From contig JADLBM010000016.1 in the NCBI GenBank assembly GCA_020847715.1, positions 6,919-70,918 on the forward strand: DNA of 64,000 nt, written 5' to 3'. Numbering within the stretch: the first letter of the stretch is position 1; each line of letters begins with the position of its first letter. The position numbers were made by a program, and so were the translations under genes. Shown piece after piece: positions 32,040 to 35,299 of this stretch. The stretch is from Candidatus Yanofskybacteria bacterium (GTDB taxonomy: Bacteria > Patescibacteriota > Minisyncoccia > 2-02-FULL-40-12 > GWA2-44-9). Below the pieces are notes generated by a model that saw nothing but the letters and a program-made list of their open reading frames with translations, ran no database searches and was not told the origin of the DNA.

Positions 32040-33047
32040 TCAGAATTGGCGCAAGAACCGCAGATCGCCGCCGTTGAATAGTCGAATGTCGTCAATCTTA
32101 TACTTGAGCATCACAATACGCTCGAGCGCCATACCGAATGCGAAGCCCTGCATTTCTCCCCGCACATAGCCGACACGCTCGAATACATTCTGATGCACCA
32201 TGCCCGCACCAGCGACCTCGAGCCATTTCCCGGCAAGCTTTCCCGACGAACCCTTGATGTACACCTCGACACCCGGCTCAACGAACGGGAAATACGACGC
32301 ATTGAAGCGCACTTCAATGTTCGGATCACGGAAGAACCGCTGATAAAAATGCTCCATCACTCCCTTGAGATTTGCCATGGACGGCGCCCCCTCCCCCGCC
32401 CGCGCAACCATAAGTCCTTCGATCTGATGGAACTGGAATTCGTGGGTTGCATCGGTCGCTTCGTTCCGGTACACCCGCCCCGGCACAATGATCCGAAATG
32501 GCGGCTGGTGCGCCTGCATAAAACGGACCTGCATCGGACTTGTGTGAGTCCGCATCAGGTGCTCCATTCCCTGCAGCCAGAACGTATCTTGCATCCCTCG
32601 CGCCGGATGGTCCGGAGGAGTATTCAACGCATCGAAGTTGGCCCACTCGGTCTCCACCTCGGGACCTTCGAGAATGCGAAATCCCATGGATGCAAAAATT
32701 GCGTTTGCATCGTCCTGCGCCTGCGCTAATGGATGGATATGCCCGCGTCGTGAGCGAAGCGCGGGAGCGGTCACATCGAGCTTCTCGAGGGCTGCGTAGG
32801 CAACATCCTCGAGCTTCTCTTTGGCACCATCGAACTGTCGCTCCAGCTCTCCACGGAGGCGGTTCGCCAGCTCGCCGAGCTCACGACGCTCTCCCTCGGC
32901 TCGCTCCTTCAGAGAACGGAGGAACTGGGACAGCTCCGAGCTTCGCCCAAGCGCACGAACGCGCGCGGCCTCAAGCTCTGCGAGCGAGCGCAGATTTTCA
33001 AGATCCTTCAATGCAACCTCCCTAATGTGATCGAGTTGGCTCTTCAT
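32040..33047 (-). CDS. pheS: Phenylalanine--tRNA ligase alpha subunit
   Basis: Class II motifs. Start taken at MKSQLDHIRE (ATG 33047). Confidence 0.9.
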   Translation of the reverse strand: MKSQLDHIREVALKDLENLRSLAELEAARVRALGRSSELSQFLRSLKERAEGERRELGELANRLRGELERQFDGAKEKLEDVAYAALEKLDVTAPALRSRRGHIHPLAQAQDDANAIFASMGFRILEGPEVETEWANFDALNTPPDHPARGMQDTFWLQGMEHLMRTHTSPMQVRFMQAHQPPFRIIVPGRVYRNEATDATHEFQFHQIEGLMVARAGEGAPSMANLKGVMEHFYQRFFRDPNIEVRFNASYFPFVEPGVEVYIKGSSGKLAGKWLEVAGAGMVHQNVFERVGYVRGEMQGFAFGMALERIVMLKYKIDDIRLFNGGDLRFLRQF

Positions 33048-33399
33048 GAACGGGTCCGCGCCGCAGACGCCACCAGATAGCAACGGATATGCACAGTGTA
33101 GCCAAAAGTGCCCCTCCCAGCAATCGCGCATCGGTTATACCTCGCTGGCGCGCGATGAGCGCGGCAACCACTCCACAGACGCCCACAAAAGACGCCCATA
33201 CTGCTTGCGCGATGCTCTGGCGGGCCACGATAAGCACTGTCGCAAGGAGGCCCCAGCACATCAACGAGAAGGCGACCCAAAAAAGGACGAGGAGCGCCGG
33301 TGGGGCGCTGGCGGGATCAGCGGTGAATATCACGACAGCAACGGCGGCCGACGCCACGATGGTCGCCGCGCCCGTCATAACCCATGGTCGGATACGCAT
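33022..33399 (-). CDS. Hypothetical membrane protein (125 aa, 4 TM segments)
   Basis: Hydrophobic ORF overlapping the pheS start by 26 nt. Confidence 0.4.
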   Translation of the reverse strand: MRIRPWVMTGAATIVASAAVAVVIFTADPASAPPALLVLFWVAFSLMCWGLLATVLIVARQSIAQAVWASFVGVCGVVAALIARQRGITDARLLGGALLATLCISVAIWWRLRRGPVHEEPTRSH

Positions 33400-33412
33400 G
33401 CCTCAGTATACC

Positions 33413-33459
33413 AAAGAACGGCCCACATGGGCCGCTCTTTTTATTGCGCGGTGGACCGG
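33413..33459. repeat. 47-bp direct repeat copy (3' end of tRNA-Asp plus terminator hairpin), distal copy
   Basis: Identical to 33581-33627. Confidence 0.85.
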
Positions 33460-33580
33460 TTCGGCTTCGCCTCTCCGCCTGACCGCCGTCAGGCTTCGGG
33501 CTAGCCACCTCCTCGCGGCGCCGTCTGCTGCCGGCGCATCGCTCCGGCGTTCGAATCCGGTCCTCCTATTCTTCAGATAA

Positions 33581-33627
33581 AAAGAACGGCCCACATGGGC
33601 CGCTCTTTTTATTGCGCGGTGGACCGG
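33581..33627. repeat. 47-bp direct repeat copy overlapping the 3' end of tRNA-Asp and its terminator
   Basis: Identical to 33413-33459. Confidence 0.85.
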
Positions 33628-33688
33628 ATTCGAACCGGCGACCTCTTCCGTGACAGGGAAGCGCTCTAACCAGCTGAGCTACCACCGC
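33615..33688 (-). tRNA. tRNA-Asp (anticodon GTC)
   Basis: Reverse complement reads GCGGTGGTAGCTCAGCTGGTTAGAGCGCTTCCCTGTCACGGAAGAGGTCGCCGGTTCGAATCCGGTCCACCGC. Discriminator G. CCA is not encoded. Confidence 0.85.
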
Positions 33689-33736
33689 ATACCCGAAAAG
33701 CGTTGCTATAGTACTGTATTTTCCGGTTTCGCGCAA

Positions 33737-34216
33737 CTACTTCCCGTCCAACACGGAGTGCCACCAAATGCGCACAATGTTTCGGGTACCGTCGTAGGTC
33801 GCAGAGTGCTCTTCCGGCATCAGTGTCGTATTGGAGCCGTTGCTGACCGCCCGCTCGTTGCCAAGATAGAACCCAATGTGCCCGTGGTCCTCGCCCATAC
33901 CGGGAACAAAGCTCCCCTTTTTCGGCTCCCATGTGATAACCGCTCCCTCCCGAAGGTCTGGTATCTGGTGCCACCCGCTTGCGGCAAGATCGCGCTCCAG
34001 CCCCGGCACTCCGGCGTGCATATCACCAATAAGCTTATTAATGTAAAGTACCGCCGACGCGAAGAATGCACAGGAAAGCGCACCATTGTTGAGGATGTCG
34101 GACTCGACGCCGTCTACCGAGGCGATAAGACTGCGAAACATGTGGTTCTCCCCCTTTGCCGCGTTCCGGACCATGGCAAGATAGCTCTTCGCTCGGTCAA
34201 TGATGACAATTGGCAT
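33737..34216 (-). CDS. NlpC/P60- or CHAP-like cysteine peptidase/amidase (Cys...His order), 159 aa
   Basis: SCAFFASAV then HGHIGFYLG. TGCTAGGAT sits 6 nt upstream of the ATG. Confidence 0.55.
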   Translation of the reverse strand: MPIVIIDRAKSYLAMVRNAAKGENHMFRSLIASVDGVESDILNNGALSCAFFASAVLYINKLIGDMHAGVPGLERDLAASGWHQIPDLREGAVITWEPKKGSFVPGMGEDHGHIGFYLGNERAVSNGSNTTLMPEEHSATYDGTRNIVRIWWHSVLDGK

Positions 34217-34251
34217 AGGAGTATCCTAGCATGAAATAGGAAATCCTTCGC

Positions 34252-34293
34252 AAAAATAAAAGCCACCCCGACCGAGCTGAGCTCGGGGTGGCT
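34252..34293 (-). terminator. Intrinsic terminator after the metalloprotease gene
   Basis: On the minus strand: AGCCACCCCGAGCTCAGCTCGGTCGGGGTGGCT followed by TTTATTTTT. Confidence 0.7.
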
Positions 34294-34300
34294 GAACGGA

Positions 34301-35299
34301 CTACCTGACCTTGGTCGCGCAGACGAGACGGGTCTGCGTCGTCCCGAAGGCCGCAGGCTTGGAAGCCTCGGCCTTCGTGCTGTCGTCGACGGGCACGGTG
34401 CCCGCCGGACGCGCGGTCAGGTAACGGAGCAGGTCGTACTCCTCCGGACTGAACTCCAGAGGAGCTCCACCGCGGGCGGAGCCGCCCATGATACCCTCGG
34501 GATCCTCGTCCCGCAGGTGTCCCACACCGATGGCGTGGGTGAACTCATGGATGACCGCCCTCTTGAGGTGATCTCCAAAGAAGACGTCCCCCAAGTACTG
34601 AAAGACGACGGTGGCGCTCACCTGCAGATGACCACGATACTCGACGAAGGTCAGGGCGCCGGCGTTTTCGTAGCCAGGCTTCCTGAACCACTCGTTCGAG
34701 GGGTCGAACTTCAGGATGAGCTTGAACTCCGCCGGCTCGGCGTCGTTCGCCGCGATGCTCCATGTGGGCAGCATCGAGGTTCCGGGGCGCGGAACCGTCG
34801 CGAGCGTGTCGCGGGTCGCGTTGAGCTTCCCCACCGCCCACTCGAGGTCGCGCCACGCATCGCGGTCGTTCCGGAATGTGGCATCCGGAAAGACGGTGAC
34901 ATGACTCGTGACGGTACGGTAGAGCGCTCCGTTGCCGTACAGCGTATACAACAACGACGCGTACGGCATCTGCGCATCGTCAGGATGGAGGTACTCCACT
35001 CCCCCAAGCGCGCACCTCGCGACTCGGGAATGCAGGTACCCCTCCGCGTCGATGACGCAGACGGCGTCCGACGAGATGGCCGTCAGCGTGACGGTGCCGT
35101 CGGTCGTCGTGATGAACGGCTGTCCGTTCACCATCACGGTCGCTCCGGGGATGGGCTGGCCGGTCCGGTTCGACCGGACGGTCAGGACACCCGAAACGAG
35201 CGCGGGAGCGGAACTGGCCGCCATGGGCGACTGCCCGTGGCATGTCGTAGACAGGAACGAGAGCGCCGCGCAGAAGGCGGCACGCAGAAGGGTGCGCAT
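34301..35299 (-). CDS. Secreted zinc metalloprotease (HExxHxxGxxH metzincin motif) with signal peptide
   Basis: HEFTHAIGVGH. GGAGGTGAT RBS before ATG 35299. N-terminus MRTLLRAAFCAALSFLSTTCHG is a signal peptide. Confidence 0.7.
   Translation of the reverse strand: MRTLLRAAFCAALSFLSTTCHGQSPMAASSAPALVSGVLTVRSNRTGQPIPGATVMVNGQPFITTTDGTVTLTAISSDAVCVIDAEGYLHSRVARCALGGVEYLHPDDAQMPYASLLYTLYGNGALYRTVTSHVTVFPDATFRNDRDAWRDLEWAVGKLNATRDTLATVPRPGTSMLPTWSIAANDAEPAEFKLILKFDPSNEWFRKPGYENAGALTFVEYRGHLQVSATVVFQYLGDVFFGDHLKRAVIHEFTHAIGVGHLRDEDPEGIMGGSARGGAPLEFSPEEYDLLRYLTARPAGTVPVDDSTKAEASKPAAFGTTQTRLVCATKVR

Follow-up and report, generated by a model that had tools for sequence, protein, structure and literature searches.

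What is to be made of a tRNA-Asp gene whose 3' end and terminator occur a second time, without a single difference, on the far side of a 121-bp spacer? The question arises in a Candidatus Yanofskybacteria bacterium (contig JADLBM010000016.1 of assembly GCA_020847715.1), within a stretch of 64,000 nucleotides referred to below as the window, in which positions are counted from the first letter. Duplications of tRNA ends are themselves well known; they are usually taken for the footprints of large integrating elements, and whatever lies between close repeats is set aside as debris. The original prediction for this locus followed the same line, taking the two copies for attachment (att) sites left by a site-specific integrase and the spacer for a remnant of integration and excision. 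The remnant idea could not be upheld. The 121 bp are a conserved folded element under selection, not a decayed remnant, and this covarying element, termed AspX here, is found at the same position in other lineages. The explanation proposed, to which a probability of about one half is given, sees in the repeats the junctions of a structured, non-coding mini-cassette that has no integrase and was inserted into tRNA-Asp at its T-loop/3' end.

The repeat pair

A repeat search over positions 32500-34500 yielded a single family, consisting of two direct copies of 47 nt with 100% identity and a spacing of 168, in agreement with the duplication first described. An exact 47-mer repeat is impossible by chance within 64 kb. 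The features concerned are listed here; numbers from L001 to L139 designate comparison loci, which were fetched by protein from genome and metagenome collections.

33614-33688 (ARAGORN) or 33615-33688 (Rfam RF00005, 71.8 bits), minus strand: intact tRNA-Asp(GTC) gene.
33581-33627: repeat copy B, the tRNA 3' end with a 33-nt trailer containing a terminator, 100% identical to copy A.
33413-33459: repeat copy A, a partial tRNA 3' end with terminator, from the repeat search and comparison with L005, L006 and L009.
33577-33612: terminator-like palindromic hairpin between the tRNA and AspX, an inverted repeat of 17+17 nt at 94% (33587-33602 in the terminator scan).
33419-33434: the same hairpin core within copy A, from the terminator scan.

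The tRNA contributes 13-14 nt to the repeat, namely the 3' strands of the T-stem and of the acceptor and the discriminator; this overlap had been recognized, with the number put at 12. The rest of the repeat is the 33-nt trailer, in which a G+C hairpin (CGGCCCACATGGGCCG, with A/T-rich shoulders on either side) is followed by a T-run. The hairpin at 33577-33612 can act in both directions. The left limit of identity coincides with the junction between T-loop and T-stem, and past the 47 nt an imperfect similarity runs on only up to the T-loop. The spacer separating the copies has the predicted length of 121 bp (33460-33580), and the oppositely oriented T-arm fragment noticed in it was also recovered: positions 33549-33566 are complementary to 33618-33635 at 17 of 18 positions, with a score of 16 in a tRNA-tail scan of the whole window, where chance matches score at most 14.

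It had been envisaged from the start that the repeat might be an assembly artefact. Two further assemblies of the same species agree with the window, which argues that the arrangement is not one. The first, L001, is a unitig of a different sample in Logan, with 97.4% identity across 10.6 kb; it ends at window position 33598, 30 nt into copy B, the point at which a de Bruijn graph with k=31 must branch if the repeat boundary lies at 33627/33628. The second, L134, comes from a third sample, has a flanking hydrolase-like gene product 99% identical to that of the window, and is continuous across the hydrolase, the tRNA, copy B, the spacer and the element, its contig ending 7 nt into copy A. Samples in which the species is present include those of SRR30804623 and SRR33243633. 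The same architecture is seen in separate assemblies of other genera (L092 and L093; L007 and L133; L008 and L135-L139).

A conserved folded element between the copies

33446-33569, plus strand as given (antisense to the tRNA): AspX, a structured non-coding element of ~120 nt, from nhmmer, a covariance model and covariation.
33567-33580: short stretch with an invariant CAG, separating the element from the terminator, from the alignment of homologues.

The spacer aligns to the sequence found at the same place in L007 and L008, and an nhmmer profile detects AspX in L007, L008, L092 and L093 with E-values from 1e-31 to 1e-13. AspX is still present in L092 and L093, where the hydrolase is just 50% identical to that of the window. 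A covariance model, R1, was built from four sequences. It gives 111 bits in the window, 111-128 bits over the window, L007, L008, L092 and L093, and 77 bits for the L134 copy, which is cut by the contig end; the background is at most 17 bits in ~1.7 Mb of fetched loci. In all carriers, AspX follows directly on the 3' side of tRNA-Asp and the hairpin terminator, in antisense orientation with respect to the tRNA. It occurs as one copy per locus, only beside tRNA-Asp, and as a single copy in the window. Its distribution covers only four distinct lineages among ~55 clade loci, namely the window and three other Patescibacteria lineages, and the covariance model found no AspX in the hydrolase relatives L127-L131.

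A comparison at close range could be made between the window and L134, whose coding flanks differ by 4.6-4.8%. Over the 284 nt comprising promoter, tRNA, terminator and AspX, two differences are found, both in the M-arm defined below, together with one 20-nt insertion. The AspX core has zero substitutions between strains with ~4.7% flank divergence.

In the consensus structure obtained with RNAalifold, a closing helix (P1) and the two hairpins P2 and P3 meet in a three-way junction.

33453-33462, plus strand: 5' strand of P1 (A-arm), inside copy A, from the consensus structure and pair counts.
33463-33506, plus strand: P2, a long hairpin whose internal loop, CTCTC, is conserved (helices 2-4).
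33509-33549, plus strand: P3 hairpin, followed by the conserved CATCGNTCCGGCGTTCGA (helices 5-6).
33545-33566, plus strand: inverted T-arm fragment (M-arm), matching the T-loop and the T-stem 3' strand of the local tRNA.
33553-33563, plus strand: 3' strand of P1 (part of the M-arm), from the inverted repeat and the consensus structure.

In this structure, 91% of cells pair. Changes on both sides are seen in 15 of the 37 pairs, against 6.3 +/- 1.9 in column shuffles, and the observed value is not attained, whatever the measure, in any of 500 shuffles; when partners are slid by 1-3 columns, pairing falls to 30-46%. The covariation signal is strong despite the fact that it rests on only four distinct AspX sequences. 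Two-sided changes affect 8 of 14 pairs in helices 5-6 of P3, where the stem is wholly different in each genome and always paired (GCGCCG/CGGCGC, GCAACGCC/GGGTGTTGC, GTTCCG/CGGAAC and TGCACT/AGTGCA). The conserved unpaired positions are CTCTC, CAC and CATCGNTCCGGCGTTCGA. As regards the strand, G-U against A-C counts favour the plus strand 13:2, and folding energies favour the minus strand in the window and L092. Terminators flank AspX; no sigma-70-type promoter was found for it, and none is conserved on either strand.

The closing helix is made from the neighbouring tRNA. The A-arm reads as the 3' end of the local tRNA in reverse complement, and P1 pairs a direct with an inverted copy of that end. 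The M-arm agrees with its own tRNA at 16 of 19 positions and with other tRNAs at 14 of 19; it carries the T-stem 3' strand of the neighbouring tRNA in all four genomes (CCGGT, CTCGT, CTCGT and CCCGT) and matches its own tRNA best in three of them. In L007, both arms share one departure from the tRNA sequence (ATGA/TCAT) and pairing is retained, so the helix itself is maintained under selection. The inverted T-arm piece is thus the 3' strand of the AspX closing helix, and not the separate scar for which it had been taken. A "T-arm" cannot form on the plus strand, because its 5' strand (CGGCG) is unpaired.

A covarying element of 120 nt built around tRNA-end copies is absent from Rfam and was not met with in the literature searched. 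Rfam 15 gives tRNAs only, at gathering thresholds on the window and six loci and at E<=10 on 33300-33800; the sub-threshold matches to SpF41, STnc370, Atu_C8 and MicX correspond to the tRNA or the terminator. A tRNA pseudogene or tRNA-like gene was also considered and rejected, ARAGORN and RF00005 being silent on AspX and the core giving z<=3.2 against the tRNA in both orientations. Neither is AspX coding: indels between homologues are not multiples of three, and the 121-bp spacer holds no credible open reading frame (ORF), only ones of the frame-artefact kind.

Empty sites and neighbouring genes

33022-33399, minus strand: membrane (TM) ORF of 125 aa upstream of pheS, a flanking core gene and boundary marker outside the element.
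33405-33413, minus strand: TGGTATACT, a box of the extended -10-like type, 5 nt upstream of the TM ORF ATG.
33737-34216, minus strand: hydrolase-like protein of 159 aa, a flanking core gene and boundary marker.

The comparison of the tRNA-Asp locus in related genomes, as initially suggested, brought out precise empty sites. In L005, L006 and L009, which have the same tRNA orientation and no AspX, the tRNA with its terminator directly adjoins TGGTATACT and the start codon (ATG) of the TM ORF. Copy A occupies the position of this tRNA end and terminator, so that 168 bp give the appearance of an insertion at the boundary of T-loop and T-stem 3' strand; the insert consists of copy B, the spacer and AspX up to the A-arm. 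The TGGTATACT motif, present at the equivalent place in L003-L008, marks the ancestral right-hand flank of the tRNA terminator. A further indication comes from L092, where the repeat measures 18 nt (GAGTCCCGTCGTCCCCGC) and begins at T-loop nt 57, and where the two terminators differ. Its distal copy has an encoded CCA, as do the identical tRNA genes of L096 and L086, and its working tRNA end has none, which makes the distal copy the displaced original tRNA end.

The att-site reading is therefore sustained in its geometry, that of an insertion at a tRNA 3' end with one complete and one partial end in direct orientation, and fails as regards the 121-bp remnant. A search of the 47-mer against phage and integrative and conjugative element (ICE) sites had also been advised, and brought no such site to light: viral contigs hold no match to the 47-mer or to two AspX motifs, and in blastn against phages and plasmids the tRNA is the sole match.

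The genes around the site are kept irrespective of the element. The order glyQS, metzincin-like gene, hydrolase, tRNA-Asp, TM ORF, pheS, pheT is found in close relatives with and without AspX, so the hydrolase and the metzincin-like gene are core genes and not the associated cargo suggested at first. The hydrolase adjoins tRNA-Asp in all close relatives; it has no Pfam match, and its relatives give weak NlpC/P60 or CHAP hints only. Homologues of the TM ORF are at the same place in L003-L010 (tblastn). The PheS relatives, from metagenome-assembled genomes labelled Paceibacterota, Yanofskybacteria and "Saccharibacteria", assign the window to the Patescibacteria or candidate phyla radiation (CPR). 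Exact-protein look-ups with the TM ORF, pheS and pheT, aimed at contigs of the same assembly, gave no record.

Some observations on the immediate surroundings may be added. Protein genes here (window 33400-33413, L003-L008) have a TGGTATACT or TGCTATACT box just 5-8 nt before the ATG, a distance which implies leaderless or near-leaderless mRNAs; the box preceding tRNA-Asp is GCTATAGT / GTACTATAG. Beside the hydrolase stop codon, TCCGGTTTCGCGCAA (33716-33730) resembles the tRNA 3' end TCCGGTCCACCGCGCAA and stands where the tRNA 3' end is found in flipped relatives; as a third tRNA-end-like fragment it was rejected, its score of 8.5 being equalled by hundreds of chance matches.

Similar inserts at other tRNA genes

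The arrangement in the window is not isolated. A tRNA-end repeat within 400 nt was found for 10 of 68 tRNAs, representing 7 distinct loci, for a chance expectation of ~0.001 per tRNA. Three cases outside tRNA-Asp, a tRNA-Leu in L082 and a tRNA-Glu and a tRNA-Ser in L027, all have the repeat starting at T-loop nt 57. The first (L082:14174-14380) has a 94-nt insert with a 20-nt repeat, and the second (L027:5559-5840) a non-coding insert of ~178 nt with an inverted T-loop piece. In the third (L027:19252-19760), the insert is a small GIY-YIG ORF alone, and the repeat takes in 35 nt of downstream hairpin, as in the window.

At tRNA-Asp itself, the content of the site changes between relatives. L092 and L096 have an identical tRNA, flanks 70-80% identical and unrelated inserts of similar size. 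Across most of the locus, L007 and L008 have ~94% identity, but their AspX cores only 60%; the non-aligning segment of L007 begins at the first base of the A-arm and ends within the element. A clean cassette swap between these two was considered and is weakened by the extent of the divergent tract, ~2.8 kb with neighbouring genes 82% identical. Since the tract includes neighbour genes, ordinary homologous import may account for it.

Other inserts were encountered at the same site. A second family of structured inserts 3' of tRNA-Asp, with its own covarying stems, is represented by L096:8026-8270 and L117:8756-8990. These have in common a hairpin TTGGAATGAAGCAGTTCATTCCAA and a covarying GGAATTTT/AAAATTCC stem; they are placed after the ancestral terminator and a GCCAGC...GCTGGC hairpin, end in a copy of the tRNA 3' end, and share with AspX only that distal copy and the motif CATCGC...GCGTTCGAGTC. 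In L088 (6745-7030), an ORF for an 87-aa GIY-YIG nuclease lies within an inverted repeat at tRNA-Asp, followed by a 10-11-nt tRNA-end repeat. In L121 (8749-10083), a large serine recombinase with Resolvase, Recombinase and Zn_ribbon_recom domains is encoded directly 3' of tRNA-Asp; homologues 68-78% identical occur in IMG/VR contigs, and no distal repeat is present within 3.4 kb in L121. In L127 (4466-4694), ~165 nt of unmatched non-coding DNA extend from the hydrolase stop codon to the terminator of a flipped tRNA-Asp; the segment is not AspX by the covariance model and may be another insert type. In the L008 lineage only, an ANT(2'')-like nucleotidyltransferase gene of low GC content (41%; PF10706, 27 bits; L008:8535-9251, minus strand, also L135-L139) lies between the hydrolase terminator and AspX. 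A search of 5.8 billion proteins found no homologues of its product beyond its own cluster, all contexts being identical.

The tRNA-Asp gene also flips among close relatives while the flanking genes stay fixed. It is on the pheS strand in the window, L005, L006, L009 and L129, and on the opposite strand in L003, L004, L007, L008, L010, L127 and L128. Between the window and L003, the inverted segment is the 84-nt tRNA only. In L004, where the tRNA is flipped, half of the old terminator (AAAGAGCTC) remains beside the TM promoter, which suggests breakpoints inside the terminator palindromes. Two types of tRNA-Asp (acceptor GCGGTGG or GCGGGCG, with different T-stems) are scattered over PheS-based relationships (L003-L010, L084-L129), a hint of exchange or replacement of the tRNA gene module. 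Finally, a perfect 20-nt mini-palindrome, CCTGCCTACCGGCAGGCAGG (0-1 mismatch), recurs in unrelated CPR genomes, with none in the window (L134:1185-1204, L027:19690-19709, L006/L084:8355-8374, L013:11955-11974, L014:2852-2871 and L041:3098-3117). It is placed in P2 of the L134 AspX, in the distal tRNA-Ser repeat of L027 and in-frame in pheT, adding roughly LPTGRQA; it has the look of a tiny palindromic insertion element.

Comparison with known systems

Partial tRNA copies are general marks of integration, and the repeats of PYG1 measure 44 bp (PMC9897764); the attB of Ms6 lies in the T-loop of a tRNA-Ala (PMC1762012). With islands and prophages in tRNA and transfer-messenger RNA (tmRNA) genes, the window shares a complete and a partial tRNA end in direct orientation, identity from the T-loop/T-stem to the 3' end, an intact tRNA and relatives with empty sites. 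It departs from them in having only 121 bp between the repeats, with no integrase or other ORF, in a repeat which extends 33 nt past the tRNA and includes the terminator, and in the conserved, covarying content of AspX with its inverted tRNA-end copy. A T-loop sublocation class of tRNA/tmRNA integration sites was reportedly distinguished by Williams in 2002.

The closest precedent for an AspX cassette is provided by the serine-recombinase islands of Dehalococcoides, which insert mid-way within the ssrA T-loop, produce a 20-bp repeat and count integrase-less 'cis-mobilizable' members among them (PMC3146451). The points in common are the T-loop insertion point (repeat from nt 57 in L092, L082 and L027), the 18-20-nt 3'-end repeat, integrase-less units between att-like repeats and, in L121, a large serine recombinase beside tRNA-Asp. 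The AspX unit, bounded by att-like repeats of putative function and devoid of recombination genes, fits the cis-mobilizable layout. Unlike AspX, the Dehalococcoides islands are kilobases long and protein-coding. Nor was a link between AspX and a recombinase found: the one tried, with the L121 enzyme, was rejected since its viral relatives share the gene alone, without a tRNA-Asp fragment or a common flank.

AspX also resembles the orphan RNA motifs of the Rfam type, with its ~120 nt, multi-stem junction, covarying helices, conserved junction nucleotides and adjacent intrinsic terminator. In contrast to these, it has no Rfam 15 match and no clear promoter, the strand evidence is split, and its closing helix is made from neighbouring tRNA 3'-end copies and tracks the sequence of that tRNA. 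Miniature inverted-repeat transposable elements (MITEs) are likewise non-coding and strongly folded, of ~120 nt, with terminal inverted repeats of 10-16 nt. This identity was nevertheless rejected: AspX has inverted ends and no short target duplication, it is not dispersed but single-copy and always at tRNA-Asp, and its ends vary by genome and match the local tRNA.

AspX has in common with the attC sites of integrons that it is folded and strand-asymmetric and keeps its structure while the sequence varies, and in L008 it adjoins the ANT(2'')-like gene, a classic type of cassette cargo. An integron attC cassette was however rejected, since the ends (GATTCG ... CGTTCGAAT) lack the R''/R' consensus (RYYYAAC / GTTRRRY), the fold is a three-way junction and not a single bulged hairpin, and the locus has no IntI gene or cassette array.

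Weighing the explanations

The proposed insertion of a structured mini-cassette at tRNA-Asp, with even chances, is grounded in what could be observed: the element is conserved and covarying, its position is fixed, empty sites exist and the site is a hotspot. The insertion mechanism, a trans-acting recombinase and present-day mobility are what we infer. The cassette would enter by recombination at the boundary between T-loop and T-stem 3' strand, via the copy of the tRNA 3' end that it carries. This copy would re-complete the tRNA, and the original 3' end and terminator would be displaced to the far side, beside the downstream promoter. The recombinase would be supplied in trans, the nearest precedent being a large serine recombinase with mid-T-loop integration and a ~20-bp repeat. 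The direct repeats would permit precise loss and in this way account for the patchy distribution. The conserved fold would be the functional module of the cassette, acting as a small RNA or as a strand-specific folded DNA site.

Several points weigh against this proposal. There is no recombinase in or beside the element, and tblastn detects no homologue of serine recombinases, GIY-YIG nucleases or nucleotidyltransferases in the 64-kb window. No free, circular or attP form was found, nor any copy in viral, phage and plasmid collections, and near the viral-contig relatives of the L121 recombinase there is no fragment of tRNA-Asp. The presence of AspX solely beside tRNA-Asp, once per locus, also fits a resident gene. 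The divergent L008 allele lies within the ~2.8-kb tract that is ~82% identical to L007 and may have come by homologous import. The related element of L096 and L117 follows the ancestral terminator, its tRNA-like end being intrinsic, and misfits a simple T-loop insertion. Lastly, att sites do not usually reach 33 nt past the tRNA as this repeat does, and gene conversion is a possible source.

An extension of the cassette proposal may be formulated, although it is doubtful as a whole. In AspX, a family of structured mini-cassettes of CPR/Patescibacteria would have its first described member; these would be non-coding and home to tRNA T-loops, with a closing helix made of direct and inverted copies of the target tRNA 3' end and with regeneration of the tRNA on insertion. 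This family would be sister to the GIY-YIG-only cassettes found at sites of the same kind, and its fold would be active, not a passive remnant, as a strand-specific folded DNA recombination site or as an RNA pairing with, or mimicking, the tRNA end.

Among the alternatives, the one that survives best, possible if rather unlikely, is a resident structured RNA gene, vertically inherited and often lost. It would be either convergent with tRNA-Asp, sharing a bidirectional terminator, or co-transcribed behind it; its closing helix would be homogenized with the tRNA by gene conversion, and the 47-nt identity would be a recent conversion tract into the terminator, not an att site. Functional RNAs typically combine covariation with conserved nucleotides in loops and junctions, here CTCTC, CAC and CATCG. 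Also in favour of such a gene are the position and orientation relative to the tRNA, which are fixed over the deep divergence seen with the L092 hydrolase (50% identical), the unsubstituted core between strains with ~4.7% flank difference, and the flanking terminators. The shared ATGA/TCAT change of the L007 arms, which still pair, indicates a helix under selection, the tRNA-like end is intrinsic to the L096/L117 element, and the tRNA-sense strand has -10-like boxes a short way upstream, TATAAT in L092 and CATACT in L007/L008. However, neither strand has a conserved promoter, the evidence on the active strand is divided (G-U counts 13:2 for plus, folding energies for minus in the window and L092) and no Rfam family matches. 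The very patchy occurrence (4 lineages among ~55 loci) and the different elements held by close relatives at the same site count against a resident gene, as does the CCA asymmetry in L092, which points to a displaced tRNA end as the origin of the distal arm.

Classical att scars, in which an integrase-bearing phage or ICE once lay between the repeats and was nearly all deleted, leaving 121 bp of non-functional leftovers, are now very improbable. The general pattern is described (PMC9897764) and a serine recombinase adjoins tRNA-Asp in one relative, but this alternative is largely refuted by covariation: homology to elements in three other lineages, with compensatory changes, is unexpected of decaying leftovers, and the core without substitution between strains with ~4.7% flank difference also counts against it. 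Furthermore, no relative has a large AspX-containing element between such repeats, and matches in the phage, plasmid and viral collections are lacking.

Debris of local rearrangement deserves no more credence. Here, tRNA-Asp would have flipped repeatedly, palindromic terminators and T-loop DNA (TTCGAA) driving template switching or inversion, and the repeats and the inverted fragment would be tRNA-end copies left over from these events. The variable tRNA orientation among close relatives in otherwise conserved synteny, the inversion of the 84-nt tRNA segment alone with respect to L003 and the half-terminator left beside the TM promoter in L004 with its flipped tRNA are in line with such events, and so would be the weak fragment at the hydrolase stop codon (33716-33730), were its score of 8.5 significant. 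Yet AspX accompanies both tRNA orientations, flipped loci without AspX are free of such debris, the AspX core has no tRNA similarity in either orientation, and debris would neither covary nor be conserved across genera. As for an assembly artefact, mis-joins can create short exact repeats, but the agreement of three independent samples (L001, L134 and the window) and the same layout in independent assemblies of other genera (L092/L093, L007/L133, L008/L135-L139) leave it a negligible chance.

Implications

In several CPR genomes unrelated to one another, this T-loop duplication surrounds inserts of very small size, some non-coding and some with GIY-YIG only. Partial tRNA copies in CPR genomes need not signal prophages, which is a warning for annotation. 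If these inserts are mobile, they would be among the smallest site-specific insertion units known and a source of plasticity in genomes of ~1 Mb; if AspX is an RNA gene, it would represent a new class of structured RNA tied to tRNA-Asp. Either way, it provides a concrete candidate, with a covariance model, for searching CPR genomes and transcriptomes.

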